A stretch of 64,000 nt of DNA from Escherichia phage 121Q: sequence record NC_025447.1, one strand, 5' to 3'. How positions within the stretch are numbered: the first letter of the stretch is position 1; each line of letters begins with the position of its first letter. A program made the position numbers and the translations under genes. Of the stretch, positions 17,450 through 63,672 are shown piece after piece. Below the pieces are notes generated by a model that saw only the letters and a list, made by a program, of their open reading frames with translations, had not been told where the DNA came from and did no database searches.

Positions 17450-17986
17450 ATGTTAGATAAAAAAATGAACTCTGGAACCCAATATAATCATCTTAAGTTG
17501 GATACATTCGAATCAGCTATCAGTACAGCACAAGATATAATTGATATTATCAAGTTCATTAAAGAAGATAAGTTCAAATGTTTGAAAATACTAAATCGTT
17601 CAATGTACCGTGATAAAAATATTCATGTATCAGTACGTAGACCGAAAGATCAAGAAAGTGGGAGAGATTTCTATAACAACAGTGAGCAGTTCGAATGTGA
17701 ATATGATCCAGAATTTAGAGGTGGTTTCATGTGTTACTGTATGAAGGATACCTCACACATTGAGATACGTTCATCGAAAGGTGGCATACGTACATTAGAG
17801 TTTATTGATATAGTTTTAAATCAGGAATACTACTTTCAACTATCATTATTGTTTCCTGCATACGATTTAGGAGTTCTATTCATGTATAAGTACTTTCATG
17901 AGCACTGGAATGAAGACTTCTATCTGGACTTAGAAGATTACCAATTAGTTTGGAAAGAAATGGTAGAACTTCGCAACCCATCTTGA
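17450..17986 (+). CDS. FQxS-core family protein
   Basis: ATG at 17450 after GAGG; core NQEYYFQLSLLFP. Confidence 0.6.
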   Translation: MLDKKMNSGTQYNHLKLDTFESAISTAQDIIDIIKFIKEDKFKCLKILNRSMYRDKNIHVSVRRPKDQESGRDFYNNSEQFECEYDPEFRGGFMCYCMKDTSHIEIRSSKGGIRTLEFIDIVLNQEYYFQLSLLFPAYDLGVLFMYKYFHEHWNEDFYLDLEDYQLVWKEMVELRNPS

Positions 17987-18012
17987 CACCCTCCGATTCT
18001 TTGTGATATAAT
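17983..18012 (+). promoter_or_regulatory. sigma70-like promoter with extended -10
   Basis: TTGACA, 18 nt, TGaTATAAT; sits in the gap before the 18046 gene. Confidence 0.55.
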
Positions 18013-18045
18013 CTCTTTATATTAATTGTAAAGGGTTATATCACA

Positions 18046-18522
18046 ATGTCCAAAGACCTATCATTTAGCAATGCACAAAAAATAGCAAAAGACATTATCA
18101 GGGTTTATAAATTCCTTACAAATGTTACTGAAGATTTTTCCGTGGGCAAACATACAGTCAAAAAACGAAATGGATACCTTTCCTTTATGGATGGGTTACT
18201 CTATAGTTCAGATGAATCAACTTGTAGTATTAGAGTGCTTGATGAAGTACCAAGTGGTGATTTTATTTCATACCATTTCCCAAGTTCAGATAATTTCAAA
18301 TACTACAATCATCATCTTATAAATGAAGGATTTGATACGGCTGAAATTAACACTGAAGAAGAGTTCTTCCAGTACAGTACTGTGTATCCAGAGAGGATTG
18401 TTTTCAGTTCAGTGATTTACACTGCCCTTAAAAATGAACTAAATTCAGATAGTGATCATTTCTACTTGGACCTGAACAATCTCGATTGTATTATTGAGTA
18501 CCTGGAGAAAAATGGTTTATGA
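18046..18522 (+). CDS. FQxS-core family protein
   Basis: core TEEEFFQYSTVYP. Confidence 0.65.
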   Translation: MSKDLSFSNAQKIAKDIIRVYKFLTNVTEDFSVGKHTVKKRNGYLSFMDGLLYSSDESTCSIRVLDEVPSGDFISYHFPSSDNFKYYNHHLINEGFDTAEINTEEEFFQYSTVYPERIVFSSVIYTALKNELNSDSDHFYLDLNNLDCIIEYLEKNGL

Positions 18523-19013
18523 TTACTACAGAATATGATTACGATGGTGTTTTAGAATTTGCAGACAATATCTATCGCATTGCAAAGGAGTTCAGAAGTC
18601 CTGACCCATTTGGTGGTATGTTCGAATACGATGAGTTTAGTTCATCCAAAGGAAGACTTGCGTTTACTAATGAAAGAGGTAATCAAATCTATGCCGAGTA
18701 CTTTGATGACAATGACTTTCATTACAAAGCCGGATACATTTCATATTGCCCTGGGTCTGATTTGAAGATTAATATTGACAATTATAGAGAAGCAGTATTT
18801 GTTAAGTATGATGATTTAGTGTTCATGTCAGAGGAAATGTACTTTCAGGGTTCTTGTATTCATGATGTAAAAGTACTTAATGCTATGTTATTTTATGGTG
18901 CACTACTTCATCATTACAAATACAAACAACGATTCTTTTTAGATTTAGTAGTATACTATAAATGCGTGGATTATTTGAATGCAAAATACGACAACAATTC
19001 AGTACATGACTGA
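18519..19013 (+). CDS. FQxS-core family protein
   Basis: core SEEMYFQGSCIHD. Confidence 0.6.
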   Translation: MITTEYDYDGVLEFADNIYRIAKEFRSPDPFGGMFEYDEFSSSKGRLAFTNERGNQIYAEYFDDNDFHYKAGYISYCPGSDLKINIDNYREAVFVKYDDLVFMSEEMYFQGSCIHDVKVLNAMLFYGALLHHYKYKQRFFLDLVVYYKCVDYLNAKYDNNSVHD

Positions 19014-19341
19014 TGGTACTGAATACTTTGTTTCAAGATATGTAATCAGACACAATCATTATGTAACCTATATTCCAGAATACAATCAATTTTATATCCA
19101 GATTTATCAAGACAATGGAAAGATAAATGATATATATTCAGAAATAAAAATCCCTGATTATAGTACTTTATCAGAAGAGGAATTGTTTCAGCAGAGCACT
19201 ATCAGTACTGAAGATGTGTACAAAATAATGGAATACCAGAAGGTACTTAAATATTTTCATGAAGTACAGGATATACAAATAGATATTCTTACTGCGTGGA
19301 GTTATATCACACACGAGGTAAATTATGTTCGAAATGATTAA
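19006..19341 (+). CDS. FQxS-core family protein
   Basis: ATG at 19006 overlapping upstream stop; core SEEELFQQSTIST. Confidence 0.55.
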   Translation: MTDGTEYFVSRYVIRHNHYVTYIPEYNQFYIQIYQDNGKINDIYSEIKIPDYSTLSEEELFQQSTISTEDVYKIMEYQKVLKYFHEVQDIQIDILTAWSYITHEVNYVRND

Positions 19342-19738
19342 AATTATGCAACGATGTGTTGTTGACCAACACGGGATATATGGATATCGTTTAAGTGCTC
19401 CTATTGACAAAAATAAAACAACCTATGTAAGCTATAATGCTGTACAAGGATTTGATATATTCATTAGTACTAATTATCAAATCAATCAAGCTAAAGATGT
19501 GTCTATAATGACCCCTGATGAGTTATTTCAGTACAGCTTAGTCTTTCCTTCATGTATCGATTTACAACGTCTAGGAGCGATACAGAAGGTTTTACGCGAA
19601 CATAAAGTACAACCCAATAAAGTCACACACATTCCAGAAACAATCTTCAAAACCATAGAAGTAGAAACTCCTGATTATATGTTAAGTGATGATGAGTACT
19701 ACGAGAAACACTTCCCTGGTAAAGTTTGGAGAGATTGA
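19325..19738 (+). CDS. FQxS-core family protein
   Basis: core TPDELFQYSLVFP. Confidence 0.6.
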   Translation: MFEMIKIMQRCVVDQHGIYGYRLSAPIDKNKTTYVSYNAVQGFDIFISTNYQINQAKDVSIMTPDELFQYSLVFPSCIDLQRLGAIQKVLREHKVQPNKVTHIPETIFKTIEVETPDYMLSDDEYYEKHFPGKVWRD

Positions 19739-20229
19739 TGAACCGAAAGTACAGAGAAACTATGAAGTTCGCTAGGGAGTGTTTAGAAGTGTTTGAGTTC
19801 ATCAATGCTCATAAAGATTTACTCCATAGATACATTGCAATCAGTGAGACAGATGACCATAGGTACATATGTTCTCGAATTCAAGATAAGATATATAAGA
19901 TTGTGTTCTCGGAAACATACACAGATACATCTAATTCACTATATGATTTTGCACGTACTGATTACGTTTCATACAAATCTTGGTCTGATAGTATTAAAAT
20001 TGTGCACAAGCAAAATACATTTTATTCTTTTCTTACGGACATTTCCGAAGAAAGTTACTTTCAAAACAGTTTAATTTATACAGAAAAAGAACTCAAAATG
20101 TTATATATTATGTCGTACTTTAAAAAGTACTGCAAATTTAATACATTATCTTTTGAGATTTCTGCAATGAAAGTATTCATTAAAAATGTAAAAGAACTAA
20201 AGAGGGCTTTTAATGTACATAGAAAATGA
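19738..20229 (+). CDS. FQxS-core family protein
   Basis: ATGA overlap start at 19738; core SEESYFQNSLIYT. Confidence 0.6.
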   Translation: MNRKYRETMKFARECLEVFEFINAHKDLLHRYIAISETDDHRYICSRIQDKIYKIVFSETYTDTSNSLYDFARTDYVSYKSWSDSIKIVHKQNTFYSFLTDISEESYFQNSLIYTEKELKMLYIMSYFKKYCKFNTLSFEISAMKVFIKNVKELKRAFNVHRK

Positions 20230-20755
20230 GAATGTAAAATGCATTACTGAAATTTGTATAAAATTAATGAAAATTTTCATTAACCCAAAATACAAAAAAC
20301 GTTCATTACATCATAATATTGATGAGCATTGTACCATTAATATACTAGGTAGTATTCTTGATGTAAAATATGATGGTAGAATGTTATTTGGCATAAGAGA
20401 AGAGAAAATAGATGATGCATTCTTTTCCTGTAAAGATAAATTTGAACCTTCTGATTATAAAGTAATTATTCGTGATGATAGCATCTACATTAGTAGTGAT
20501 TATTCAAATTACTTCGATAAAATATACAATGAAAACGTTGACTACCATTATGAAATGATAGATTTACCAGTAACAGACATTGATATGGAGAGAATCAAAT
20601 TTTCATTATCAGATAATGAGTACTTAGGTATACAAACATATTATTCACTACAAGGAAAGATTCCACCTGCTATGTATATAAGGATTGAGATTGGTAATGT
20701 ATTCAATGATAAGGTTATATCTATTGCTGATAAAATATTGAGGGTTGAATTATGA
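20213..20755 (+). CDS. hypothetical protein (possible divergent FQxS member)
   Basis: 180 aa ORF; degenerate core region ERIKFSLSDNEY. Confidence 0.45.
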   Translation: MYIENENVKCITEICIKLMKIFINPKYKKRSLHHNIDEHCTINILGSILDVKYDGRMLFGIREEKIDDAFFSCKDKFEPSDYKVIIRDDSIYISSDYSNYFDKIYNENVDYHYEMIDLPVTDIDMERIKFSLSDNEYLGIQTYYSLQGKIPPAMYIRIEIGNVFNDKVISIADKILRVEL

Positions 20756-21315: not shown

Positions 21316-21826
21316 AGATGATATTCTAATTAGACTAATTAATAGTTTAATAAAGTTCTCAAATAATGATGTCGATACATACAAAGTGGGGGATATTGAA
21401 TTTAAATCATTTGGTATGTACGGTGAGGATAAAACATATTATGCGTCAATGAAATTTCAAGATTTTCACGAGATGTTAATATCGTTATCATATGAAGATG
21501 TTGATCCAAGATGGAGTTCCAGTATTTCACTATCGAGAATGGTAATTCGTAGTAAGCATCGTTATATTTCGTCAAAGAATACTCCTAACTTGATTAATAT
21601 TGTGTTGAATGAAAATACAAATCCCCTATCTAAACATGATATCGTACCGTTAACCGATGAAGTTCTTTTTCAATTGAGTACCATTTGTGATGAAGATGTG
21701 ATATCATGTATGAAAATTTATGAGAAGGTTGGGAGTGATATTCCCATGAACTATTACCTAACTATAGATGGAACGTACCTTCGAGATGAGGTTCTAGCGT
21801 ACATTGACAGTGTTTTACCAAAATAA
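21308..21826 (+). CDS. FQxS-core family protein
   Basis: ATG at 21308; core TDEVLFQLSTICD. Confidence 0.6.
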   Translation: MDKDDILIRLINSLIKFSNNDVDTYKVGDIEFKSFGMYGEDKTYYASMKFQDFHEMLISLSYEDVDPRWSSSISLSRMVIRSKHRYISSKNTPNLINIVLNENTNPLSKHDIVPLTDEVLFQLSTICDEDVISCMKIYEKVGSDIPMNYYLTIDGTYLRDEVLAYIDSVLPK

Positions 21827-21847
21827 AGACCCGTATGGGTCTTTTTG
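21827..21847 (+). terminator. rho-independent terminator
   Basis: AGACCC-gtat-GGGTCT hairpin followed by TTTTT. Confidence 0.6.
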
Positions 21848-21913
21848 TGTTTATGGCTTTACAAGAGCATTCAGGTGTGTTATACTTGATTTTAACTAGA
21901 GTTGGAGGAATCT

Positions 21914-25125: not shown

Positions 25126-25130
25126 ATTCG

Positions 25131-25157
25131 TACCAGGGGTTGACTCTGGTATTTTTG
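25131..25157 (+). terminator. rho-independent terminator
   Basis: TACCAG-gggttgact-CTGGTA hairpin followed by TTTTTG. Confidence 0.55.
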
Positions 25158-25186
25158 TATGATACATTGTCCTAAAGGAGAATTTT

Positions 25187-29228: not shown

Positions 29229-29702
29229 ATGGAGATTAAAACTGTTGAAAATGGGAAAATTGATGACATTTTAGAGTTGGACGCATTCAAAGTTCATGAT
29301 ATAATGTTTAATGTGAAGGACATTATTCAATGTCTATTTTTGTGTAGCAAGACAATGCATGATTTTTTTCACAACCCAAATACTAACGTTTTTATACTAA
29401 CAATCAGTACTGAAAACTCGTTTATCATGGGTATGCCTATGAGTACAAATGAACAATATATTGATTGTGTTATTCGTAATAACGATAGTATTACGCCACA
29501 ATCTGAAGTACGTAAAAAGAAAAACACCTACACAATCAAAGATGATAAAATTATGATGTGCTGTAGTAAAGGGTTTATATTAGATAATTTTATCGTCAAA
29601 GACAGTTATCATGACTTTAAAGTGTCTGAAAATCAATCCAATGTAGTTCTTTATGCGAGTGACATAGAAAGTCTAACAGTTAAAGACCCCAGTTTGGAGT
29701 AA
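29229..29702 (+). CDS. hypothetical protein
   Basis: 157 aa ORF with AAGGAT RBS; no family core. Confidence 0.5.
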   Translation: MEIKTVENGKIDDILELDAFKVHDIMFNVKDIIQCLFLCSKTMHDFFHNPNTNVFILTISTENSFIMGMPMSTNEQYIDCVIRNNDSITPQSEVRKKKNTYTIKDDKIMMCCSKGFILDNFIVKDSYHDFKVSENQSNVVLYASDIESLTVKDPSLE

Positions 29703-31032: not shown

Positions 31033-31071
31033 ATGTGAACATATTAGATTCTTGTGATATAATGTTCACAT
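31033..31071 (+). promoter_or_regulatory. promoter with extended -10 inside a 10-bp inverted repeat
   Basis: ATGTGAACAT ... TGTGATATAAT ... ATGTTCACAT; perfect 10-bp arms flank the -10 element. Confidence 0.45.
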
Positions 31072-31096
31072 CTTTTTTTTGATAACGGAGATATAG

Positions 31097-31889: not shown

Positions 31890-32744
31890 ATGAAACTTTA
31901 TCTAATCGTTGACTACAATAAGGATTATGCTGGTAACTTCACCGAAGATTCGGATGGATATTGCACATCGACTAATGTCAATGTACGTAGCAGTAGTGCT
32001 CATGAACATGAATCTTGTAAAAATCTAAAAGATTTTATCGCATACCGAGCATTTGAAAAGAACTTCTGCCGCAGTAGATATTCGAAGTTTGAGTACCCGT
32101 TAATTGATGTTCCTGATGATTTAATGTTCCAGTTAATGCTGACCGGAGTTCAAGATTATGATTACATAGCGTATAATCATATTACTAAGAAAATTTATAT
32201 TGGTACATCATCACATGACACTTCTATGTATGCATCATGCCCAGATGATCGAATGAATGATAGAAAATCATACTATAGTGGGTCAGTTGGTTTAAATGAT
32301 TCATTAAATAAAAATTCATTCTTTGAGTATGTTTATGATTACCATCATGAGAAAAAAGAACGTGAAGATTACTGTATAGCAATTGATAGTACTAATGGTT
32401 ATGAAGACGTGAAAGAAGCACTTATGCCGTACATTATTGAAAAGTACTACAAAGATTTTCAGTACTGTAGTAATTTTCTAATCAGAAATTCTATTATAAT
32501 CGGTCGCCAATCTAGTGCATACTCTCAGTACTATAATGATTCACCAGTAGCATCGGCAAATGAAATGTGTGATATTTTACAAATTCCACGTGAAGATATG
32601 GCATTCATTTTTACATCTTTTATTGAAGATGATGAGTTGTATATTAAAAATAAACACCGTTTCATGCCAAGCAAGATTGAGGTTATTCGAAGTTTTAGTG
32701 TTGATATACTAACAAATTTCACAGAAAAAACCGAATATAACTGA
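31890..32744 (+). CDS. FQxS-core-containing protein (large member)
   Basis: ATG at 31890 downstream of terminator; core PDDLMFQLMLTGV within a 284-aa product. Confidence 0.5.
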   Translation: MKLYLIVDYNKDYAGNFTEDSDGYCTSTNVNVRSSSAHEHESCKNLKDFIAYRAFEKNFCRSRYSKFEYPLIDVPDDLMFQLMLTGVQDYDYIAYNHITKKIYIGTSSHDTSMYASCPDDRMNDRKSYYSGSVGLNDSLNKNSFFEYVYDYHHEKKEREDYCIAIDSTNGYEDVKEALMPYIIEKYYKDFQYCSNFLIRNSIIIGRQSSAYSQYYNDSPVASANEMCDILQIPREDMAFIFTSFIEDDELYIKNKHRFMPSKIEVIRSFSVDILTNFTEKTEYN

Positions 32745-32774
32745 GACAAATGATAAGTTAATGATATAATATAA

Positions 32775-32807
32775 GGTGACAACATAATATGTTAGTCACC
32801 TTTTTTT
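32775..32807 (+). terminator. rho-independent terminator
   Basis: GGTGAC-aacataatatgtta-GTCACC hairpin followed by TTTTTTT. Confidence 0.65.
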
Positions 32808-32809
32808 AA

Positions 32810-33347
32810 TCCTGAAAGGTTCCCATAAGGAAATGATTAAAAGCCTAATCCACTCGAAAATGTAGAGGGTAGATGAGTAGTCCTTTCAGTACGAACAGCA
32901 GATGAAACCCGTTAGATGATGGCATAGTTTGAACCACTCACGGCAATGCGGCTGTATAAAGAACTCCAATAGGATAAAGAGAGTTCCTCGATAGACATAT
33001 AAGGATCGCACCTTACCAATTATCTAAGGGAGATTTCATAAGAAATATGCGGTCGGAATTATACAATATAGTTGCGTCCAAATTTTGTGAAATCAAATAC
33101 AAGTACTGGTCATATGGTATTTGTATTATGTGTCGGGATGTTTAAGACCGACGACCGTTGCTACAAGAACCGCGATAGAGAGAAACAGAGCAACCCGCTT
33201 TCGTCTCGTAAGAGAATTCGTGATATGAACTATGTGAAGGCCACCAGCGTCAAATTTTTTTGTTCTTTCCCCTGCGGGGGGATGAAATATGCTCAAGCAA
33301 ACCCCGTCAATATTAATTAAAAGAAAATAGTACTTGTAGAATTAGAC
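32810..33347. other. ORF-free, hairpin-rich island (candidate structured RNA or control region)
   Basis: No convincing ORF on either strand; locally higher GC by eye; complementary segments CTGAAAGG/CCTTTCAG, GAACTC/GAGTTC, GTCGG/CCGAC, TTGCT/AGCAA, CCCC-tgcg-GGGG. Confidence 0.35.
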
Positions 33348-34506: not shown

Positions 34507-35036
34507 AAGAAACATGTGTATTAACGTTTGGTCGTATTAATCCTGTACATCGTGGACATGGTTTAGTTTTTGAAAAGGCCAAAACATTACAAGAACAGTA
34601 CAATGCTGATTTAAAAATATATCTAAGCACCAGTACTGACAATATAAAAAACCCACTCCCACCTGAACTAAAAATGTATTATACAGAGGGATTCTATCCT
34701 TCAGTGCAAGAGAACATCTACACAGAAGACAATCTATTTGATATAATGAGAGAACTGGATGGAAAGTACTTAGATGTTCTTTTCATTTGTGGTTCTGACC
34801 GTATTGATTCTTTTCAAAAAACTCTTGACATGTACAATGGTAAGTTGTATAATTTTTGTAGTATAAAAGCAATTCAGGCAGGTATTGACCGTAATGTAAG
34901 TCAATATAGCTCAACACAAATGCGTAACTTCGCAAAAAATGAAGATTTTGATAGTTTTCGTGAGTTTTTACCTGGAAATGACGAGGACTTAAAAATACAA
35001 TTATTTGAAGACGTTATAAAATACATGAGGAAATAA
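34503..35036 (+). CDS. HxGH nucleotidyltransferase (NMN adenylyltransferase-like)
   Basis: N-terminal TFGRINPVHRGH matches the G-R-F-x-P-x-H-x-G-H signature of NadM/cytidylyltransferase-fold enzymes. Confidence 0.5.
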   Translation: MKETCVLTFGRINPVHRGHGLVFEKAKTLQEQYNADLKIYLSTSTDNIKNPLPPELKMYYTEGFYPSVQENIYTEDNLFDIMRELDGKYLDVLFICGSDRIDSFQKTLDMYNGKLYNFCSIKAIQAGIDRNVSQYSSTQMRNFAKNEDFDSFREFLPGNDEDLKIQLFEDVIKYMRK

Positions 35037-35332: not shown

Positions 35333-35612
35333 TGAAATAAATCTTACAGGATATTTTTTACAAGAATCAATGATTAAATTTAGTGAAAAATTTTCAGTAC
35401 TGGATGGTATCGAAATGTGGCATGTCAAACCACTGTTCCACACTTTCAGTAAAGAGCACAAAATGTTATTGACTGAAGCGAGTAAATCAAATAACATATG
35501 TGAAATCAAAATTGGTGTAAATGTCTATAAAGGGATGGTTATCTTTTTTGACAATAACAGCAACTACTTTTATATTGTTAAGGAGCATTACGTTGACAAA
35601 TACAAATACTAA
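35325..35612 (+). CDS. hypothetical protein
   Basis: ATG at 35325 overlapping upstream TGA. Confidence 0.45.
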   Translation: MCDEINLTGYFLQESMIKFSEKFSVLDGIEMWHVKPLFHTFSKEHKMLLTEASKSNNICEIKIGVNVYKGMVIFFDNNSNYFYIVKEHYVDKYKY

Positions 35613-36529: not shown

Positions 36530-36792
36530 ATTATAAAGATTTCCTACTAACATACAAGATTATTCGAGATTTAGCACACGACAATGATAGCCCTAGTCTA
36601 GAAGACACATGCACTGAAATGATTCATACGATTCGTGGTAAGATTAAAAAAAAATTCAGTACTGTTATTATTGGTGATGACCATGCAGAATTTTCTGATA
36701 TAATCATTAGACGTGATGGTAAAGTTGAGGTTCAGTACTACACTGATTTTGGATTTACCAGTATTCCGTTGGAGATATTCCCTTGGGATTAA
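36526..36792 (+). CDS. TYK-LYDL family small protein (2/7)
   Basis: N-terminus MNYKDFLLTYKIIRDL. Confidence 0.55.
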   Translation: MNYKDFLLTYKIIRDLAHDNDSPSLEDTCTEMIHTIRGKIKKKFSTVIIGDDHAEFSDIIIRRDGKVEVQYYTDFGFTSIPLEIFPWD

Positions 36793-38572: not shown

Positions 38573-38837
38573 AGTACTTGTTGCTGAAACAATGAAGATG
38601 ATTTACGATATCACGTCAGCACAGAATATGCCATATCCAACTAAGTCTTTATTGAGGACTGTGTATCTGGGGATAGTACAGGAGTACTACAAATCCAAGC
38701 ACAGAAGCATTATTAGTGTTTATCGTGATTATGAAAGGATTCGTATTTTATTCTGGAACAAGAATCGAGTACGTTCTGAATGTGATCTAGTAGATTTTAA
38801 ATTAGAGAATCTTTATTGCTATAAACAGGGACAATAG
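38559..38837 (+). CDS. hypothetical small protein
   Basis: ATG at 38559 (MRTNEVLV...) in frame with ORF 38541-38837. Confidence 0.45.
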   Translation: MRTNEVLVAETMKMIYDITSAQNMPYPTKSLLRTVYLGIVQEYYKSKHRSIISVYRDYERIRILFWNKNRVRSECDLVDFKLENLYCYKQGQ

Positions 38838-38895
38838 TCTAATTCATGATATAATAATGGGTAAGGAACAATAATTAACACAAGGAGTGTGTGAA

Positions 38896-46293: not shown

Positions 46294-46599
46294 ATGGATA
46301 TACAAACATTCAATAAGCTAAAGTACTATGATAATGGTTTTGCATTAATAATTAACGAACTTGATGGGATACCATACGAATATCATAATCAATTAATGAA
46401 GATAGTAAAATGTATATGTGAAGAATTAAAAAGTATGTTTAAAAATGAATATGTTTATGATTTAGGTAATAGTAGCAAAAAACTATACATAAAAAAATTC
46501 TGGGGAACGCATTGTGGTTTAATGGTCGATTTAGGTTTAAGTTTAGACGATAATTCTGAATCATGTTCATTATATATAGATGAAATGCGAATATCATGA
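46294..46599 (+). CDS. hypothetical small protein
   Basis: 101 aa ORF starting immediately after upstream stop. Confidence 0.45.
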   Translation: MDIQTFNKLKYYDNGFALIINELDGIPYEYHNQLMKIVKCICEELKSMFKNEYVYDLGNSSKKLYIKKFWGTHCGLMVDLGLSLDDNSESCSLYIDEMRIS

Positions 46600-46656
46600 G
46601 ACGTATCAGAATTCGGTGATATAATTTGATTACATCACCAATGTGGAGAAGTTGAA

Positions 46657-48137: not shown

Positions 48138-48388
48138 TGTTCAACAACGACTTATCACATTTGCGATATCTTATGTCTTTGGCTGATGATTTTATAAATG
48201 ATCTGAAGCCAAAATATATTGGTCAAGAAGTACGATTAATAAACTCCAGAGGGTATGGAAAATATATTATTACTGATATGTATATTAGTGGTGGTGAATG
48301 GCGTTTTAAAATTAATACTTATCTTAAAGATGGTTCTTTTGCTGGAACACAAGTTACTAAACACACTAATATTATATGGTTGGAGTAA
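48137..48388 (+). CDS. KYxG-V family small protein
   Basis: LKPKYIGQEVRLIN. Confidence 0.5.
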   Translation: MFNNDLSHLRYLMSLADDFINDLKPKYIGQEVRLINSRGYGKYIITDMYISGGEWRFKINTYLKDGSFAGTQVTKHTNIIWLE

Positions 48389-48390
48389 TA

Positions 48391-49134
48391 ATGAAACATT
48401 TCTTAGAAGTAACCGTACCTGATGATAAAGATTTATACATTGTAGGTGATTTGCATGGTAATGGTAAACTATGGGATGCTACAGTGAAAGAATTTGGTAT
48501 TACACACAATGATTATGTTTTCAGTGTAGGTGATATTATCGACCGTGGAGAACAAAATTCAAAGCTCCTTTTTGAATTTTTGTTCGGAGAAAATCGTTAC
48601 ATGATTGCAGGTAATCATGAGATGATGTGCGTTGATTCGGAAACACTTCGAGATTGGTATCATTGTTGGATAAGTAATGGTGGTGATAAATTCCTTGATG
48701 AAGTTGGAGGAACAGGCATTCAATTCTTTCGTCAGTACTTAAAAGATCTCCCTATGATTATCCAAATCAATCACCGAGGCTTGAAGATTGGGTTAGTTCA
48801 TGCTGGAGTTCCGTTGGAATATACAACATGGGAACGATTTGTTAATGGGACAAAATCACTTAGTGCTGATATAATTGATAAGTGCTTGTGGGATAGGAAA
48901 ACATTCGATTATTGTAGAACGAATAATACCTATTATGCACCTAAGTTAGATGGAGTGCATTGTGTCTTTAGTGGACATACAGCAGTTACTGATCCACTCA
49001 TTTATGGTAATCGCATTTGGATTGATAGTCAGTTCTTGACGGGTGACTTAACTCTCGCTACTCCACAAAGTGGTGGGATGAGATACTTACGTAAAGAAAA
49101 AGATGAATACTCATTCAATCGTTTCAAAAGGTAA
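48391..49134 (+). CDS. Ser/Thr protein phosphatase (PPP family, lambda-phosphatase-like)
   Basis: GDLHGN, GDIIDRGEQN and AGNHE metallophosphatase motifs; GGAG RBS 5 nt upstream. Confidence 0.8.
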   Translation: MKHFLEVTVPDDKDLYIVGDLHGNGKLWDATVKEFGITHNDYVFSVGDIIDRGEQNSKLLFEFLFGENRYMIAGNHEMMCVDSETLRDWYHCWISNGGDKFLDEVGGTGIQFFRQYLKDLPMIIQINHRGLKIGLVHAGVPLEYTTWERFVNGTKSLSADIIDKCLWDRKTFDYCRTNNTYYAPKLDGVHCVFSGHTAVTDPLIYGNRIWIDSQFLTGDLTLATPQSGGMRYLRKEKDEYSFNRFKR

Positions 49135-54301: not shown

Positions 54302-54329
54302 TGGACATTTTAAATCTTAGTGATATAAT
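54302..54329 (+). promoter_or_regulatory. sigma70-like promoter with extended -10
   Basis: TTGGACA, 16 nt, gTGaTATAAT upstream of clpP RBS. Confidence 0.5.
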
Positions 54330-54363: not shown

Positions 54364-55059
54364 ATGGTTGAACAATTCATGTTTGGTGGTTATGCTAATG
54401 GCGAAGTACGTAACATTTCTATTCCTTACGTAGTTGAGAAAGTTAATGGTTCAGAACGTACATATGATCTAGCATCTCGTATGATGCAAGACCGTATCAT
54501 TTTCCTTGATACTGATTTCAATGATCAAATGGCACATATCATCAAACAACAATTGGTGTGGTTAGACTCACAAGGTGATTCCCCTATTACATTCTACATT
54601 AGTTCACCAGGTGGTTCAGTACACGCAGGTTTGGGTATTGCAGACGTTGCTAAGTCTTGTATTTCCCCAATCCGCACTGTAGTTATGGGTTATGCGGCAT
54701 CAATGGGTTGCTATACACAATCTGTTATTGGAACTAAAGGTTTCCGTTTAGGTGGTAAACGTTCATACTTCATGTGTCACCAAGTAAGTTCTGGTACACA
54801 AGGTCTAATTACAGACCAGAAGATTTCCCTACAACATTCTGATGCACTGAATACATTGTTGACCAAAGAAATTGCAGAAGCAGTAGGCGTATCACATGAA
54901 CAATTACTAAAAGATGCTGACCGCGATTTGTGGTTAAATGCAGAAGAAGCACTTGAATATGGTGAACATGGTTTCATTGATGGTATTATTCTTGGACCAC
55001 GTAACGAAGAAGGCAAGTACTTAGTTAAGCGTCGCGGCGGTGTGGAAGAGTGGGTGTAA
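54364..55059 (+). CDS. clpP: ClpP-family serine protease subunit
   Basis: DRIIFLD, ISSPGGSV and MGYAASMG (active-site Ser context); His in FMCHQ. Confidence 0.8.
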   Translation: MVEQFMFGGYANGEVRNISIPYVVEKVNGSERTYDLASRMMQDRIIFLDTDFNDQMAHIIKQQLVWLDSQGDSPITFYISSPGGSVHAGLGIADVAKSCISPIRTVVMGYAASMGCYTQSVIGTKGFRLGGKRSYFMCHQVSSGTQGLITDQKISLQHSDALNTLLTKEIAEAVGVSHEQLLKDADRDLWLNAEEALEYGEHGFIDGIILGPRNEEGKYLVKRRGGVEEWV

Positions 55060-55398: not shown

Positions 55399-55399
55399 T

Positions 55400-55846: not shown

Positions 55847-55856
55847 TATTACAAAT

Positions 55857-57702: not shown

Positions 57703-57731
57703 AAAAAAAGGAGCCACAAGGCTCCTTTTTT
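57701..57731. terminator. bidirectional rho-independent terminator
   Basis: A9-GGAGCC-acaa-GGCTCC-T6 between convergent genes. Confidence 0.7.
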
Positions 57732-57732
57732 G

Positions 57733-58110
57733 TTAACCAGGGATGTTACAATAATACAAATCCCAAGGGTGATATTTCATTTCTCCAGTACTCAATTTAA
57801 TTTTATGAAACTGGAATGATTCGGCAAATGCACTATCATCAATCTTAATACAAAAAGTATTTTTTGCTAAAGTTGGTGCAATCTCTAGTGCAGTTTTAGT
57901 TGCATCTAATCTGATTTTATCTTTATCAAAACTTGTTATAGTTACAAAACGATAAACATTAAAATCAGTGTCGATAAGATCGTAAACACAACTAGAACGT
58001 TGATTAAAGATGTTCAAGTTATATTTCAATTCACCGTTTATATTAGCGGCGGTTACACAAAAGCCGCCGATATTGAATGGTAATTTACCTTGTGCTGCTA
58101 TAGCTTTCAT
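57733..58110 (-). CDS. hypothetical protein (antisense island, gene 2)
   Basis: 125 aa minus-strand ORF with AGAGGAAA RBS; N-terminus QGKLPFNIGGFCVTAANINGE is paralogous to the upstream small ORF. Confidence 0.55.
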   Translation of the reverse strand: MKAIAAQGKLPFNIGGFCVTAANINGELKYNLNIFNQRSSCVYDLIDTDFNVYRFVTITSFDKDKIRLDATKTALEIAPTLAKNTFCIKIDDSAFAESFQFHKIKLSTGEMKYHPWDLYYCNIPG

Positions 58111-58238
58111 ATTTTATTTCCTCTTATTAATAAACAACTACTTTTACAGATTGTTGTACCTTTTATATTTACACCGTCAACTAAATATCCACCTAAAGTG
58201 AATGGAAATTGGTCTTGTCCTGCGATTGGTTCCCCCAT
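58107..58238 (-). CDS. small protein (43 aa), paralog of the N-terminus of the downstream gene
   Basis: Hand translation MGEPIAGQDQFPFTLGGYLVDGVNIKGTT...; AAGGAG RBS 8 nt upstream; stop overlaps next ATG. Confidence 0.4.
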   Translation of the reverse strand: MGEPIAGQDQFPFTLGGYLVDGVNIKGTTICKSSCLLIRGNKI

Positions 58239-58357
58239 TAAGGGCACTCCTTATAAAAAAGCTTTACATTTGGTATGGGTTTGTGATAGAATCTTCACAG
58301 TGATTGTACTAAGGGGATTATCAGATGAGGGAAATTTGAGTTAAGTACAGAAAAAGT

Positions 58358-58386
58358 TTGACTTAAGTGTTTAAGTACTATATTAT
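58358..58386 (+). promoter_or_regulatory. sigma70-like promoter
   Basis: TTGACT, 17 nt, TATTAT upstream of the 58420 gene. Confidence 0.5.
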
Positions 58387-58419
58387 TTATATCTTCCTAA
58401 CCAAAATTAAGGATTTGTT

Positions 58420-59028
58420 ATGAAAAGACTATGGCTTGAGGTAGTACAAGCAGTAATGCTTCTGATGTTGATAAATTTTCCAGCCAGTGCTGGTGTTGAA
58501 AGTAAAAATGTGATAAAGTACAATCCTGAAACACGTAATGTATATTTCATCTCAGATATTACGGATGGGTCACTAAAGCGTATGATGGAGTTGTATGATA
58601 AAGAACACTATGATACCATTACCATCACATCGCCAGGTGGTGATTTTGATGCTGGGATTAAAATGGCAAACTTCGTTAGAGACAATGGTATAAATTTAAT
58701 TGTTTCTAGGTATTGCAACTCAGCATGTACTGTGGTATTCTTCAGTGTAGCTTTTGAAAAGCGATACATGATAAATCGCTCAGTACTGGGACTTCATAAC
58801 ATTTCTATTAAAAGTAATGTTAAAGACGGTGATAATTCTTTTGTATCAGTTAGGCAGCTATCAACTTTTACTGAAGAAATGGCAACTAAAGTAGGTTTTC
58901 TATTTACACTATATTCTGCAAATGGAATTCCACCAGACGTTCTATATAAAGTTAGCCGTTCGCGTGGTGAAGATGTTGTAATATTAACAAAACCAGAACT
59001 GGTTTTTTACGGTTCAGTCAAACAATAA
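58420..59028 (+). CDS. secreted ClpP/crotonase-fold-like protein (putative periplasmic protease-like)
   Basis: N-terminal signal-peptide-like LLMLINFPASAG; TITSPGGDFDAG resembles the ClpP-fold S-P-G-G loop. Confidence 0.4.
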   Translation: MKRLWLEVVQAVMLLMLINFPASAGVESKNVIKYNPETRNVYFISDITDGSLKRMMELYDKEHYDTITITSPGGDFDAGIKMANFVRDNGINLIVSRYCNSACTVVFFSVAFEKRYMINRSVLGLHNISIKSNVKDGDNSFVSVRQLSTFTEEMATKVGFLFTLYSANGIPPDVLYKVSRSRGEDVVILTKPELVFYGSVKQ

Positions 59029-59952: not shown

Positions 59953-59970
59953 AATTATAAGAGAGAATAG

Positions 59971-60165: not shown

Positions 60166-60174
60166 GGATCGAAT

Positions 60175-60927: not shown

Positions 60928-61475
60928 GTGTTAAAGAAGTTCCCTTTGGTGAATATGGCTCACGTGCAAATTTTGTATTTTGTTATTTCTTTGCAAGAAA
61001 ATGTAACCCTTACAAAAACTATGAGTTGAATGATATACCAGAAGTAAATTTAGTTTTACTACAATTACGATGGGATGGTCTTCTTGGTGGATGTGGTGGA
61101 ACCGTAGAAAGTACTGATATCTCACTAGAAGATGCGTTGCGTCGTGAAGTTCAAGAAGAAATGGATTACAATATTTTTGTTTCCCATCTTCGACCACTCA
61201 AAACTTTTGAAATTTACCCAGGTGCAAACAGTCATAGTTTTAGCTATGAAGTAAGCTATGACGAGTTGAAACACATTAGAGATGGATACACTAATGCTAA
61301 ACATGCGAGTGCTGAAGTTGCTGGTGTAAATTTATGTCATATTTCTCGTTATTCTAAGGGACAAAATCGAGAAGCGGGATATAATAATCTTATGACACAG
61401 AACTTCATCGGTACAGCAAAACAAGAATTGGAGTATCTGGTTCAAAAAGAAAACTTACTAATTAGTTATCTATAG
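60924..61475 (+). CDS. Nudix hydrolase-like protein
   Basis: GGTVESTDISLEDALRREVQEEMD approximates the Nudix box (compare MutT GGKIEMGETPEQAVVRELQEEVG) with a one-residue insertion. Confidence 0.55.
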   Translation: MSVKEVPFGEYGSRANFVFCYFFARKCNPYKNYELNDIPEVNLVLLQLRWDGLLGGCGGTVESTDISLEDALRREVQEEMDYNIFVSHLRPLKTFEIYPGANSHSFSYEVSYDELKHIRDGYTNAKHASAEVAGVNLCHISRYSKGQNREAGYNNLMTQNFIGTAKQELEYLVQKENLLISYL

Positions 61476-61484
61476 GAGTTTAAC

Positions 61485-61805
61485 ATGTCTTACGCAATGT
61501 TTTTGGATGATATTCGTGATGCAAATCTATATTATCCAAACCAAGATATGGTGGTATGTCGTGACTTTAAAAGTGCATGTGAATATGTTATTGAAAATGG
61601 AATTCCAGCATTTGTATCATTCGACCATGACTTGGGTGATGTGAGCGAAGACGAAAAGACTGGATATTCTTTTGCTAAGTTTCTTATTGATTATATGTTT
61701 GATAATAATATTAAAGAACCGTTTGAGTACTTTGTTCACAGTAGTAATCCTGTTGGTAAAATTAATATTGAAACATACTTAAACAATGGATTTAACGCAT
61801 TATGA
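61485..61805 (+). CDS. hypothetical protein with acidic FLDDIRD / SFDHDLGD motifs
   Basis: 106 aa; GGAG RBS; motif spacing reminiscent of receiver-like domains, unverified. Confidence 0.45.
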   Translation: MSYAMFLDDIRDANLYYPNQDMVVCRDFKSACEYVIENGIPAFVSFDHDLGDVSEDEKTGYSFAKFLIDYMFDNNIKEPFEYFVHSSNPVGKINIETYLNNGFNAL

Positions 61806-62104
61806 TTCAAACACACATCAAAAGTCTTATTTGTACTGTTCTGTTAGGTGCAGGAGTTCTTTGGTTCGGACAGTATCACGAGAACACTAAGCGTACCAAC
61901 ATTCACTACAATACCGCAGAAGTTGTTAGTTTAGGACAATGTAGCGAGTCCAAATGTTCATTCATGTATAAAACCCAAAGTGGTGAAGTACGTAATGGAC
62001 TATCAAGAGAACCAGTTTCAATTGGTCAACTTGTTTACCAGGAGTGCTGGGAAGAAAAGGTTCGAGGTTCACGTTGCTATGTTGAATACGAACCAAATAT
62101 GTAA
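61802..62104 (+). CDS. hypothetical protein with N-terminal TM segment
   Basis: 100 aa; hydrophobic LICTVLLGAGVLWF. Confidence 0.45.
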   Translation: MIQTHIKSLICTVLLGAGVLWFGQYHENTKRTNIHYNTAEVVSLGQCSESKCSFMYKTQSGEVRNGLSREPVSIGQLVYQECWEEKVRGSRCYVEYEPNM

Positions 62105-62164
62105 TAATCCGAGTCAATAACATTAGTCGAGTACAAGGATGTACTCATAACTCAAGGATGTTTT

Positions 62165-63604
62165 ATGAAAAAATATACAATTGACACAAACGTACTACTA
62201 TCTGACCCTAATGCATCTATTGCTTTTGATGGTGCTGCAATCATTCTACCATTTACAGTACTGGAAGAATTAGATTCGATTAAGAGTCGTAATGTAGATG
62301 TTTCACGCGATGCTCGTGTTGCTATTCGTAACATTGAAGCAATTATTGCAGATGCATCACATGACGAGATTAGTAGTACTGGTGTTAATATTGCTGATGT
62401 TCATACCAATATGAATCCTGATAGCAAATTGTTTGTTATTACAAACGAAGAAGCTGAGGCACTAATTCGTACTAAAGGTACAGAAGAGAAAGTTCAAACC
62501 CTTCTCAAAAGTACTGTACCTGATGATAAAATCATTCTGGTAGCTTTAGCAACAGAATCAGTACTGGTAACTCGTGATATCAACATGCGTATCAAAGCAC
62601 TAAGTTATGGTGTCGAGGTACAAGATTATCGCCATGATATTGTTATTGGTGATAGTGATTTGATTCACATTGGTCAACACCATCTGGAAATCAATTTTTG
62701 GGAAGTATACAGCAACTTAACCAATACTAATATTCAATCCGAACAAGTTGGTCGTCGTTTGTATCATTACATTTCTAAAAGCTTGATTGAACATCTGCTT
62801 CCACAAAATCTATGCATCGGTGATTATCTATATGATGATGCTGACGTATTATTTGTGTACGAAGGACAATCAGCAATTGAGGAAGATGATGGAACACTAA
62901 CACCAGAAGATATTTTGGTATTCCAAGACATTGGACAATCAGTGTCTTTACGTGCTAAAGTATGGGATATTAAAGCAAAGAATATCCAACAAGCACTCGC
63001 CATCAACAGTATTCTCGATCCTGATGTACATCTAACAGTACTGCTAGGTTCTGCTGGTACTGGTAAAACACTAATTACAATTGCTACTGCATTAGAATTA
63101 GTACTGGAAAAACGTAAATACGACCGAATCATCTTCTCTAAAACTCAAGACTCACAGTTTGAAGATATTGGTTTCTTGCCAGGTTCAGAAGCAGAAAAAG
63201 TGATTCCATTCTGTGGAGCCGCGATTGATGCGTTAGAGTTTCTTCATAAAGATGATGCCAATCCACAAGGTAGTATTGAAGAGATTATGAAACGTAATGT
63301 TATTCAATTTAAAGCACTAAACTTTGTACGTGGACGTTCATTCACCAACACTATTCTAGTAGTTGATGAATTCCAAAACATTACACCTGCACAAGCAAAA
63401 ACCATCTTGACACGAGCAGGGTTAAACTGTAAAGTAGTAATTATGGGTAACTTGAGTCAGATTGACAGTAAGTTTATTAGTCCTGTTAACAGTGGTTTGA
63501 CATATGTAACTGAGAAGTTTAAAGACTGGGCAGGTTGTCGTGTCATCGAACTAGAAGGTGTTGTTCGTTCACCACTGGCTGAATTTGCTGAAGAAAATAT
63601 GTAA
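62165..63604 (+). CDS. phoH: PhoH-like ATPase with N-terminal PIN domain
   Basis: PIN-like YTIDTNVLLSDPNA; Walker A LGSAGTGKT; Walker B VVDEFQN. Confidence 0.8.
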   Translation: MKKYTIDTNVLLSDPNASIAFDGAAIILPFTVLEELDSIKSRNVDVSRDARVAIRNIEAIIADASHDEISSTGVNIADVHTNMNPDSKLFVITNEEAEALIRTKGTEEKVQTLLKSTVPDDKIILVALATESVLVTRDINMRIKALSYGVEVQDYRHDIVIGDSDLIHIGQHHLEINFWEVYSNLTNTNIQSEQVGRRLYHYISKSLIEHLLPQNLCIGDYLYDDADVLFVYEGQSAIEEDDGTLTPEDILVFQDIGQSVSLRAKVWDIKAKNIQQALAINSILDPDVHLTVLLGSAGTGKTLITIATALELVLEKRKYDRIIFSKTQDSQFEDIGFLPGSEAEKVIPFCGAAIDALEFLHKDDANPQGSIEEIMKRNVIQFKALNFVRGRSFTNTILVVDEFQNITPAQAKTILTRAGLNCKVVIMGNLSQIDSKFISPVNSGLTYVTEKFKDWAGCRVIELEGVVRSPLAEFAEENM

Positions 63605-63605
63605 T

Positions 63606-63628
63606 ATTGTATGGGACATAATGTCCCA
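63606..63628. promoter_or_regulatory. 23-bp near-perfect palindrome (terminator hairpin or operator)
   Basis: GTATGGGACAT-a-ATGTCCCATAC just after phoH stop, followed by TGATATAAT -10-like element. Confidence 0.4.
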
Positions 63629-63672
63629 TACATGATATAATGTTGTTATCATAATACAGAAGGAGATATAAA

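Follow-up and report, generated by a model that had tools for sequence, protein, structure and literature searches.

We consider it probable that host RNA polymerase carrying sigma-70 uses promoters whose extended -10 (TGnTATAAT) is a recurrent element of this phage, (G/A)TGATATAAT, and that the palindromes lying over some of these promoters act in RNA and are not operators. We measured motif statistics and conservation, the energies of hairpins, and substitutions that preserve pairing; from these we infer which polymerase and sigma factor are at work, where transcripts start, and how termination and translation are affected. Asteriusvirus jumbo coliphages (G17, 121Q, PBECO4) match the stretch analysed (the window, 64,000 nt) at ~99% identity, with values of 99.4% for G17 and 96% for PBECO4. 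In our best explanation, the window represents the early-gene region of a Rak2-like jumbo coliphage (Asteriusvirus); copies of the T4-type late motif TATAAATA are far fewer than expected (1 vs. 14.2 ± 3.4), which argues that the window is not a late region. Footprinting comprised only four diverged lineages at 78-86% identity, including Turkey5, fEgEco12, and ph0011.

An Extended -10 Element on One Strand

An earlier note on this DNA had claimed that a -10 element recurs in front of genes, and the recurrence is real. The window holds 11 exact matches to TGATATAAT, all on the + (coding) strand, against 3.44 ± 1.67 in 100 dinucleotide-preserving shuffles, none of which reached 11. TATAAT alone is strand-symmetric (68 on + vs. 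73 on -); TGNTATAAT occurs 15 times on + and once on -, GAC-N14-16-TGNTANNNT 21 times on + and never on -, and the bias is also present in four relatives (+/-: 9/0, 9/1, 9/0, 9/1). A generic TTGACA/TATAAT consensus scan of the window found no enrichment over shuffles in this AT-rich DNA, so the signal is specific to the extended form. Copies of GTGATATAAT lie at 18003-18012, 31054-31063, 46616-46625, and 54320-54329, those of ATGATATAAT at 32761-32770, 38846-38855, and 63632-63641; the coordinates given earlier were correct to 1-3 nt. That list contained these seven sites, yet missed four intragenic copies of TGATATAAT (29297, 34739, 36696, and 48867) and several promoters with one mismatch (1165, TGATATAGT; 21878, TGTTATACT; 25160, TGATACATT).

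The position of the copies agrees with a promoter function. Seven of the 11 are intergenic, in gaps that sum to 2,546 nt (4% of the window), and six of these seven stand 32-41 nt 5' of a start codon and have, 16-18 bp further upstream, an nnGACA -35 element. The exception, 32762, precedes a noncoding RNA and no gene. At 18004, 31055, 32762, 38847, 46617, 54321, and 63633, the -35 and -10 blocks are kept in the four lineages while the spacers drift. Strand exclusivity, intergenic enrichment, distance to start codons, -35 spacing, and retention of both blocks together bear out the claim of extended -10 promoters before genes (table 1). Individual sites vary in detail: the -35 of P18004 contains the stop codon of the preceding gene, and both its blocks are kept in three other lineages, with a Turkey5 ortholog also found; the -35 of P31055 is TGAACA in the window and TGGACA in relatives, that of P54321 TGGACA and TAGACA, respectively; P38847 has GTG for ATG in three relatives; and a 50-bp module at 25130..25168 is entirely missing from fEgEco12 and ph0011.

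Could the recurrence be a functionless by-product of AT-richness and codon usage, GAT-ATA-AT encoding Asp-Ile-Ile/Met? The four intragenic copies are in this very frame, those at 34739 and 36696 are without promoter-like conservation and are probably chance occurrences, and generic sigma-70 matches are no commoner than in shuffles. Yet the excess and the empty - strand already contradict such a reading, as do the concentration in noncoding DNA, at a constant spacing from start codons, and the conservation of blocks against diverging spacers; for the set as a whole, it is hardly credible. The other two intragenic copies are tentatively regarded as internal promoters; at 29297 the 9-mer is identical in four lineages, while its -35 drifts synonymously.

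Table 1. Candidate promoters, hairpins, and noncoding RNA of the window
Feature	Coordinates	Strand	Description
P1165	1145..1173	+	TTGACA-17-TATAGT with TG (TGATATAGT); gap before gene 1203
P18004	17983..18012	+	TTGACA-18-TATAAT with GTG; predicted start ~18019
RNA hairpin	18001..18046	+	~20 bp, 5-nt loop, one internal mismatch
Terminator hairpin	21825-21844 + T run	+	5' of promoter 21858-21886
Promoter 21878	21858-21886	+	TTTACA-17-TATACT with TGTG; after terminator hairpin
Terminator hairpin	25130-25152	+	z -3.1; T run after; encloses -35 of TGATACATT promoter
Promoter TGATACATT	25160-25168	+	-35 TTGACT, in hairpin loop and 3' arm
Possible internal promoter	29278..29305	+	TGGACG-16-TATAAT with TG; inside gene 29229-29702
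Hairpin	31033..31080	+	10-bp arms, then C + T8 (31073-31080)
P31055	31036..31063	+	TGAACA-16-TATAAT with GTG; predicted start ~31070
P32762	32743..32770	+	GAGACA-16-TATAAT with ATG/GTG; stop codon within -35
Hairpin AAGGTGAC...GTCACCTT + T7	32773..32807	+	Immediately 3' of P32762 -10; z -4.0
Structured ncRNA	32776..33317	+	~540 nt; conserved core ~32811-33317
Intragenic TGATATAAT	34739..34747	+	Codons D-I-M; without conserved -35
Intragenic TGATATAAT	36696..36704	+	TG and -35 gone in fEgEco12
P38847	38828..38855	+	GGGACA-16-TATAAT with ATG; before gene start 38896
P46617	46598..46625	+	GAGACG-16-TATAAT with GTG; stop codon within -35; before gene 46657
Weak imperfect hairpin GGTGATATAAT-TTG-ATTACATCACC	46615..46639	+	z -2.0
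Possible internal promoter	48847..48875	+	GGGACA-17-TATAAT with TG; inside gene 48376-49134
P54321	54302..54329	+	TGGACA-16-TATAAT with GTG; before ClpP-like gene 54364-55059
Hairpin	63608..63632	+	12-bp arms, 1-nt centre; -35 in 5' arm; without T run
P63633	63613..63641	+	GGGACA-17-TATAAT with ATG; before gene 63673

Host or Phage Sigma Factor

In extended -10 promoters, a single base separates a TG from the consensus -10, which weakens the requirement for a -35; unmodified host polymerase uses them for strong immediate-early transcription of phages. At the level of sequence, the window promoters share the TGn-TATAAT form with Escherichia coli sigma-70 extended -10 promoters and phage T4 early promoters. 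Buttimer et al. (2017, PMC5259590) had already predicted this class in two related phages, CBB and GAP32, and CBB has 18 predicted RpoD-like promoters, many with TGn, clustered in an early region of short ORFs (PMC5259590). The phages form one clade, the promoters lie in a one-strand region of short hypothetical ORFs, the -35 is TTGACA-like and the -10 TATAAT-like with TGn very common (e.g., TTGATATAAT, GTGGTATACT), and some promoters sit within terminator-like hairpins, such as Porf_41. In the window, however, position -13 is almost always A, the -35 (nnGACA, spaced by 16 bp) shows more degeneracy, and the UP-like stretch, rich in A, has less regularity. We found no promoter analysis of an Asteriusvirus in the literature searched. 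The promoters of PA5oct, a phage that depends on host RNA polymerase, are of the form TTGAC/TATAATA. T4 early promoters, whose strength is documented (PMC3014915), differ from those of the window in their -35 region (GTTTAC) and UP elements.

These promoters might be real but read by a phage-encoded sigma-70-family factor, as a middle class, instead of host sigma-70. Asteriusviruses and CBB do encode a sigma-70-like factor, the -35 forms (GGGACA, GAGACA, TGGACA) depart from TTGACA, often with lineage-specific G/A for T, and A is strongly preferred at -13 (11 of 16 TGNTATAAT), also a lineage-specific feature. On the other hand, the -10 with TG is a perfect host consensus, with a perfect TTGACA at two sites; an incoming genome without virion RNA polymerase requires host-recognised promoters in such a region; and the RNA element described below has a copy on a Serratia chromosome that retains a TGCTATACT promoter. 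Moreover, the second promoter class of the CBB authors is another motif (TGAAACG -35), which is absent from the + strand of the window. We thus regard a phage factor as quite unlikely.

Palindromes at the Promoters

The 10-bp inverted arms noticed earlier at 31033-31071 are exact (ATGTGAACAT, 31033-31042; ATGTTCACAT, 31062-31071); the palindrome placed at 63606-63628 is present, but its true extent is 63608-63632 (TGTATGGGACAT-A-ATGTCCCATACA). The earlier note saw operator geometry in such palindromes and suggested that a dimeric repressor may control the promoters; on this view, a repressor of phage or host would switch them off. Perfect 10-12-bp inverted repeats indeed overlap the core promoter at 31033-31071 and 63608-63632, the arms at 63608 are unchanged in three lineages with the centre alone variable, just as an operator would show, and TGTGA-N8-TCACA around the -10 at 31053-31070, also found at the 54321 ortholog in fEgEco12 and ph0011, loosely resembles CRP half-sites. 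That symmetry, however, is gone in Turkey5 at both sites. The palindromes share neither half-site nor geometry: they differ in sequence and in placement relative to -35/-10, having only promoter sequence in common; the arms of 31033 lie 19 nt apart and those of 63608 1 nt, while 18001 has ~20 paired positions around a 5-nt loop. Most of the set (38847, 32762, 1165, and 21878) has no palindrome over the core, and a T8 run follows 31071. Substitutions in relatives turn A-U into G·U or U-A into U·G on the + strand, being wobble-compatible on the sense strand only; such changes keep an RNA helix and break DNA symmetry, which argues against operators. At the 63608 position, Turkey5 carries an unrelated hairpin and other genera plain or canonical terminators. 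A scan of 10 window proteins turned up neither a helix-turn-helix nor any other DNA-binding domain, a weak negative. Operators are thus very improbable.

We favor hairpins that act in RNA. Folding z-scores are -8.5 (18001), -4.0 (32773), -4.0 (63608), -3.1 (25130), and -2.9 (31033). The 31033 hairpin (dG -12.1) keeps eight of nine pairs across all four lineages, with three wobble changes, and is read as the intrinsic terminator of the upstream unit, enclosing a promoter; its AT-rich stem and 19-nt loop region make it weak by the usual rules. That at 32773, with a compensatory change of GAC/GTC to GAT/ATC in Turkey5, is read as terminating the upstream gene, as forming the 5'-terminal stem of the RNA, or as both; it and 25130 were annotated as terminators by the G17 depositors. 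The 63608 hairpin (dG -17.1) begins directly after the stop of a PhoH-like gene, and its stem is kept with a variable loop in three lineages; we read it as a 3'-end or terminator hairpin. Like Rho-independent terminators, these hairpins follow stop codons, show U runs (25130, 31033, 32773) and compensatory changes, and correspond in position to canonical terminators of other genera; they differ in the long loop at 31033, which holds promoter spacer and -10, and in the missing U run at 63608. The 46615 hairpin is not conserved in fEgEco12 or ph0011 and is thus probably fortuitous. Covariation evidence is thin for the promoter-overlapping hairpins, since their arms overlap already-conserved promoter elements and the lineages are only four; full compensatory pairs number one at 18004 and one at 32773, the other changes being wobble.

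At 18001..18046 (dG -21.2 kcal/mol), the -10 region pairs with the Shine-Dalgarno and with what follows it as far as the AUG of gene 18046-18522, and the helix is kept in four lineages with one compensatory and three wobble changes. RNase III processing is known from T7 early mRNA. The promoter-overlapping hairpins, especially 18001-18046 and the U-less 63608, could likewise be RNase III, processing or stability sites in read-through RNA: the 18001 stem, which spans some two helical turns and contains a single internal mismatch, has the size of an RNase III substrate, and neither the 63608 hairpin nor its Turkey5 substitute has a U run. Against this stand the T runs after 25130, 31033, and 32773, the canonical terminators at the 63608-equivalent position in 12 distant relatives (other genera), and the 18001 stem, which covers the Shine-Dalgarno exactly like T4 cases. 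Processing and masking can coexist; still, we judge processing sites unlikely.

A Structured RNA Downstream of P32762

P32762 would drive a noncoding RNA, not a protein gene. This RNA has an invariant block (CACGGCAATGCGGC at 32939) and strong covariation, with many covarying helices interspersed with invariant stretches; it occurs in jumbo phages of the Rak2-like group and also in a small number of enterobacterial islands. No Rfam 15 family matched it in sequence or structure, including GOLLD, ROOL, OLE, and raiA, which are large structured ncRNAs of bacteria and phages, and it is apparently undescribed. It resembles these four in its size (~0.5 kb), covarying helices, phage-borne occurrence, and own promoter, yet differs from them in having 4-5 diverged copies per genome. 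A perfect TGNTATAAT stands upstream in 29 of 29 IMG/VR copies from other jumbo phages, 142-200 nt from the invariant block, and likewise in 26 of 33 distinct copies from genome and metagenome scans. We counted this association as independent support for the promoters.

Implications for Early Transcription

Overall, we suggest that at least eight such promoters would start transcription anew along an array of small genes that share one strand, with an nnGACA -35 placed 16-18 bp upstream and often overlapping the stop codon of the previous gene. The palindromes would work on transcripts coming from upstream, without an operator role: terminator hairpins (25130, 31033 with U8, 32773 with U7, and the U-less 63608) appear to crowd against the promoter that follows. 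Transcripts of the new promoter at 25130 and 31033 would start inside or beyond the hairpin and thus lack it; at 32773, the hairpin would be largely inside P32762 transcripts, and this escape logic is therefore not clean there. The hairpin at 18001..18046 would mask the ribosome site in read-through RNA, while P18004 transcripts would miss its 5' arm. Its geometry matches that of T4 e, soc, 49, and I-TevI, where the Shine-Dalgarno or AUG is held in a helix of the read-through RNA (PMC3014915, section 29) and the DNA for the 5' strand contains the gene's own promoter, whose transcripts lack that strand (PMC3014915). As in those genes, good translation of gene 18046-18522 would be expected only from own-promoter transcripts. 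The internal promoter of T4 is late (TATAAATA, gp55) and provides a temporal switch, whereas P18004 is of sigma-70 type and may uncouple the gene from upstream read-through.

Predicted Promoters of the Early Region

An extended -10 element had been reported to recur in front of genes on this DNA, and every site listed in the earlier note was found, with coordinates correct to a few bases (see table; promoters are named here by the position of the -10, hairpins by their start). The window holds 11 exact matches to TGATATAAT, all on the + strand, against an expectation of 3.44 +/- 1.67 from 100 dinucleotide-preserving shuffles, none of which reached 11. Each of the 11 has a perfect TATAAT hexamer with TG one base upstream of the -10, at -15/-14 (TGA-TATAAT at every site), and the same 9-mer is similarly biased in relatives (9+/0-, 9+/1-, 9+/0-, and 9+/1-). 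TGnTATAAT is the textbook extended -10 element recognized by sigma-70. Generic sigma-70 consensus scans of the whole window gave 110, 119, 106, and 38 matches versus 125, 122, 109, and 30 in shuffled sequence; they are uninformative because the DNA is 32% G+C, and we therefore relied on strand asymmetry and on the extended -10 form. The asymmetry is a clean internal control: TATAAT alone occurs 68 times on the + strand and 73 times on the - strand, whereas the counts are 15 and 1 for TGNTATAAT and 21 and 0 for GAC-N14-16-TGNTANNNT. Seven of the 11 copies are intergenic, in gaps that total 2,546 nt, or 4% of the window. At six of these the -10 ends 32-41 nt before the next start codon, in keeping with a position in front of genes; the seventh, 32762, heads a conserved RNA and not a gene. 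Four intragenic copies and three near-matches in further gaps had been overlooked.

Each intergenic site is also preceded, at 16-18 bp, by a -35-like element built on a GAC(A) core, which agrees with TTGACA at four to six of the six positions. In three cases the TGA stop of the upstream gene lies inside the -35 (17984-17986, 32742-32744, and 46597-46599; TTGACA or TGAGAC), so that the TGAGAC variants, part of the departure from TTGACA, reflect the embedded stop codon.

Conservation was followed among close relatives. The window shares 99.4% identity with Escherichia phage vB_EcoM_G17 over 22 kb and 96-99% with phAPEC6, Sharanji, and PBECO4, which belong to the genus Asteriusvirus (jumbo myoviruses, Rak2-like clade). 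Public records give hypothetical proteins nearly throughout, the recognizable functions being a Dam methylase, an RNA ligase, a polynucleotide kinase, a DNA ligase, ClpP-like proteases, a dCMP deaminase, and a PhoH-like protein; the records compared hold no promoter annotation for the region, and a literature search returned no promoter or transcript analysis, transcriptome, or biochemistry for Asteriusvirus. The 128-aa protein downstream of 31055 has no relatives in IMG/VR, and since Asteriusvirus appears to be absent from that database, close relatives were drawn from GenBank phage records. The footprinting set comprised the window and three further lineages, fEgEco12 (84% identity), ph0011 (86%), and Turkey5 (78%). 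Blocks formed by the -35 and TGATATAAT are kept in relatives at 18004, 31055, 32762, 38847, 46617, 54321, and 63633, amid diverged spacers and upstream coding sequence. The 38847 ortholog reads GTGATATAAT in fEgEco12, ph0011, and Turkey5, which makes the GTG form ancestral at this site. Two intragenic copies, 29297 and 48867, have GAC at the correct distance within well-conserved blocks and may be internal promoters. For the other two, 34739 and 36696, relatives lack either the TG or the -35; these copies are best put down to chance, which predicts about as many.

Overall, strand exclusivity, a -35 at 16-18 bp, the distance to the start codon, and the conserved blocks uphold the reading of the intergenic elements as promoters, here predicted to be of the sigma-70 extended -10 type. 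In the related phage PA5oct, host RNA polymerase is required and TTGAC/TATAATA promoters lie at mapped transcript starts; in the supplementary promoter table of CBB, many entries contain TGn (PMC5259590). Both fit a sigma-70 reading, as does the scarcity of the T4-type late promoter motif TATAAATA, found once in the window versus 14.2 +/- 3.4 expected, the pattern expected of a live late promoter avoided by an early region. That sole copy lies at 58384-58391 on the - strand, just upstream of the window's only - strand genes, all others being on the + strand. This small cluster (57733-58247), closed by a bidirectional terminator, looks like a late-expressed antisense insert. It is lineage-specific: fEgEco12 has no counterpart to 57703-58420, the matching interval of ph0011 contains a - strand gene of 2.7 kb, and in Turkey5 a - strand gene of 0.9 kb lies somewhat downstream of it. 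This stretch between + strand early genes is a hotspot of variable insertion. A separate 151-bp non-coding gap (9070-9220), with a G7 run, A and T runs, and a CCCCGCC block (TTGACAGGCCGCAGGGGGGGTCAAAAAAA ... AAAAAAAATACCCCGCCACC), contains no extended -10 promoter.

Features of the window (the last line gives comparison loci)
Feature	Position	Strand	Detail
Extended -10 element, GTG form	18003, 31054, 46616, 54320	+	
Extended -10 element, ATG form	32761, 38846, 63632	+	
Extended -10 element, intragenic copies	29297, 34739, 36696, 48867	+	
Near-matches in further gaps	1165, 21878, 25160		TGATATAGT, TGTTATACT, TGATACATT, respectively
-35-like element	17983 and 1145	+	TTGACA
-35-like element	54302	+	TGGACA
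-35-like element	38828 and 63613	+	GGGACA
-35-like element	32743 and 46598	+	GAGACA or GAGACG
-35-like element	31036	+	TGAACA
Hairpin	18001-18046	+	dG -21.2 kcal/mol, z -8.5
Hairpin	63608-63632	+	dG -17.1 kcal/mol, z -4.0
Hairpin	32773-32802	+	dG -13.9 kcal/mol, z -4.0
Hairpin	25130-25152	+	dG -12.9 kcal/mol, z -3.1
Hairpin	31033-31071	+	dG -12.1 kcal/mol, z -2.9
Genes on the - strand	58247-58107 and 58110-57733	-	
Bidirectional terminator at their end	57704-57731		
Candidate structured ncRNA	32776-33317 (core 32811-33317)	+	~540 nt
Further copies of the RNA	L018, L021-L028, L031-L061, L063-L099		

Hairpins at the Promoters

When the + strand was folded, five sites associated with promoters showed significant hairpins; a further one, at 46615-46639, is weak (z -2.0) and unconserved and was not counted. 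Four of the five begin 2-29 nt after a stop codon (25130, 31033, 32773, and 63608). A T run directly follows the stem at three of them (T5 at 25130, C+T8 at 31033, and T7 at 32773), and none follows that of 63608; 25130 and 32773 had already been called terminators by the depositors of G17 (ARNold). Pairing has been maintained in evolution. Of the nine pairs at 31033, eight persist in all four lineages, with three changes from A-U to G·U or from U-A to U·G, and at 32773 Turkey5 shows a double change from GGTGAC/GTCACC to GGTGAT/ATCACC. At 63608 the loop alone is altered in fEgEco12 and ph0011, and Turkey5 has another palindrome there, GCGTCCAT-GCTATA-ATGGACGC, bracketing the -10. Further afield, a stem-loop follows the PhoH-like gene in 12 distant relatives (RaK2, CBB, GAP32, BF, fHe-Yen9-04, and IMG/VR contigs), mostly as a GC-rich stem and then a T run; in two of them (loci L004 and L005) the hairpin is followed by GTGATATAAT, and the -35 falls within its 3' arm. 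What stays constant here is thus a gene-end hairpin and not a sequence. The 25130 terminator and its promoter form a discrete 50-bp indel (25126-25175), present in the window and G17 and cleanly missing from fEgEco12 and ph0011, a distribution suggesting gain and loss of such regulatory modules as whole units. In ph0011 (locus L015, ~35440-35520, orthologous to window 38800-38855) an extra 1.5-kb gene lies upstream of the 38847-type promoter and ends in a canonical terminator, AAAAAATGAACATAT-AAAA-ATATGTTCATTTTTT, immediately before the -35; the junction is another case of a terminator followed by a promoter.

Two of these structures had been noticed as palindromes and read as possible operators of a dimeric repressor. 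Both exist: the arms of the first (31033-31042 and 31062-31071) are exact, and the second, TGTATGGGACAT-A-ATGTCCCATACA, is slightly offset from where it had been placed, at 63608-63632. The operator interpretation was not supported, for we found no recurring half-site, no fixed geometry, and no conservation at the DNA level. The arms ATGTGAACAT, TGTATGGGACAT, and TTGTGATATAATC share promoter bases alone, just as promoter elements in the arms are the only sequence common to the five hairpins, and most promoters of the set have no palindrome. The geometry differs each time: at 31033 the arms stand 19 nt apart on either side of the -10, at 63608 a gap of 1 nt separates arms that overlie the -35 and spacer, and at 18001 the stem has a 5-nt loop and pairs the -10 with the ribosome-binding site. 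Moreover, substitutions in relatives yield G·U pairs on the + strand, keeping the RNA helix while breaking the DNA symmetry. A CRP-like TGTGA-N8-TCACA (31053 and 54321 orthologs) was likewise set aside, its spacing being 8 and not 6, its symmetry lost in Turkey5, and the motif missing from the remaining promoters. That an individual palindrome additionally binds a protein seems very improbable; one of the 10 window proteins scanned against Pfam is named "transcriptional regulator" in another record, and a DNA-binding domain was detected in none of the 10, a weak negative as ~130 others fell outside the scan. Thus, judged from sequence comparison, the palindromes are best read as signals in RNA, not as operators.

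The strongest hairpin, 18001-18046, had been overlooked. The -10 (18007-18012) lies within its 5' arm and, with the next bases (UUGUGAUAUAAUC-U-CUUUAUA), pairs with UGUAAAG-GGUUAUAUCACAA, in a helix that takes in the Shine-Dalgarno AAAGGG and extends up to the A of the AUG of gene 18046; across four lineages it shows one double change from C-G to U-A and three wobble changes. Because the stop of the previous gene lies inside the -35 there is no upstream terminator, so that incoming polymerase would transcribe the entire hairpin. A transcript from promoter 18004, starting at about 18019 (~7 nt past the -10), would lack most of the 5' arm. The ribosome-binding site of gene 18046 is thus predicted to be masked in transcripts that read through from upstream and accessible in those from the gene's own promoter. 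The T4 genes e, soc, 49, and I-TevI have a like arrangement of helix, ribosome-binding site, and promoter: read-through transcripts mask the site, and those begun at a promoter within the 5' strand of the helix leave it free (PMC3014915). The T4 masks, however, involve a late promoter, whereas the promoter here is of the sigma-70 type and the purpose of a mask is less obvious. With a stem of ~20 bp, processing by RNase III is a reasonable role, either instead of translational masking or in addition to it.

A Predicted Structured RNA Downstream of 32762

No gene follows 32762, and the next ~620 nt are unannotated in G17; yet nowhere else is the window so well conserved in distant genera. By blastn, 60 jumbo-phage records match it at 66-76% identity over ~470 nt, usually without an annotated feature, at four to five places per genome, among them Salmonella phages 7t3 and Munch, Klebsiella phage fENko-Kae01, Erwinia phages, Serratia phage BF, Yersinia phage fHe-Yen9, Xanthomonas phage XaC1, GAP32, and CBB. 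Each of the Rak2-like jumbo phages surveyed (Asteriusvirus, Mimasvirus, Eneladusvirus, and relatives from Salmonella, Klebsiella, Erwinia, and Xanthomonas) has the RNA, in four to five diverged copies that are mostly unannotated bar a few spurious small ORFs. A search pattern made of two invariant blocks retrieved 30 copies from ~12 jumbo contigs in IMG/VR, 35 metagenome contigs, and, in genomes, three true matches (an Enterobacteriaceae MAG and two Serratia assemblies) and one chance match. In Serratia sp. 2723 (locus L064, ~5310-5950) a full copy lies in low-GC DNA just downstream of a large serine recombinase (568 aa; Resolvase, Recombinase, and Zn-ribbon domains), and in the chromosome of Serratia sp. 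L9 (locus L063, ~3450-3900) a partial copy has a truncated resolvase-domain ORF in place of its 5' part. The two stretches have a GC content of 43-44%; these copies suggest that the RNA is carried by an integrative element, which may be a satellite of jumbo phages of Serratia.

The consensus structure derived from 28 aligned sequences (A3) has 62 pairs, and compensatory double changes are seen at 33 of them. Standard pairs fill 97.6% of cells in this structure versus 36-46% when the 3' partners are slid by one to three columns, and cells changed on both sides number 312 versus 19-63; the observed covariation was reached by none of 500 shuffles. A conserved ORF is excluded by frameshifting indels. 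Rfam 15 returned no family at gathering thresholds and, for the window copy and eight others at permissive E-values, nothing consistent, only scattered chance matches (E > 0.1). The invariant words of the RNA retrieved no paper in a full-text literature search, the RNA-seq-supported ncRNA001 and ncRNA002 of PA5oct show no similarity to it, and, among the proteins encoded beside the RNA and after the promoters, ClpP was the sole Pfam match.

A perfect TGNTATAAT stands 142-200 nt before the invariant block in all 29 IMG/VR copies with enough upstream sequence; of the 33 distinct copies retrieved from genomes and metagenomes, 26 likewise have it upstream, and three more have TGCTATACT. This recurrence is the best independent evidence of a working extended -10 promoter in the clade. 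Most copies have a hairpin at the very start, the predicted 5' end, and at the orthologous locus this hairpin bears a T run and is predicted to terminate the upstream gene. On balance, we lean toward ATGATATAAT at 32762 being the promoter of an undescribed family of ~0.5-kb, highly structured, multi-copy non-coding RNAs.

Conclusions

The promoters, terminators, and predicted mask are of known kinds, and we found no published analysis of them in Asteriusvirus; their practical value lies in providing the genus with a first map of promoters and terminators for its early region. The layout is compact, with stops inside -35 elements, terminators wrapped round the next promoter, and what is predicted to be a T4-style ribosome-site mask coupled to a promoter of the sigma-70 type. 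The map also corrects an inviting misinterpretation, as palindromes lying over a promoter would here be RNA signals and not operators. Following one listed site, 32762, led to a large structured RNA family that is apparently undescribed, for which a ribozyme, an RNA scaffold, and a host-takeover or anti-defence RNA are candidate functions. Large structured RNAs without an assigned function are rare, and new classes have tended to bring new biochemistry. Conserved across jumbo-phage genera whose proteins barely align, this RNA is a more consequential result than the promoter set itself.
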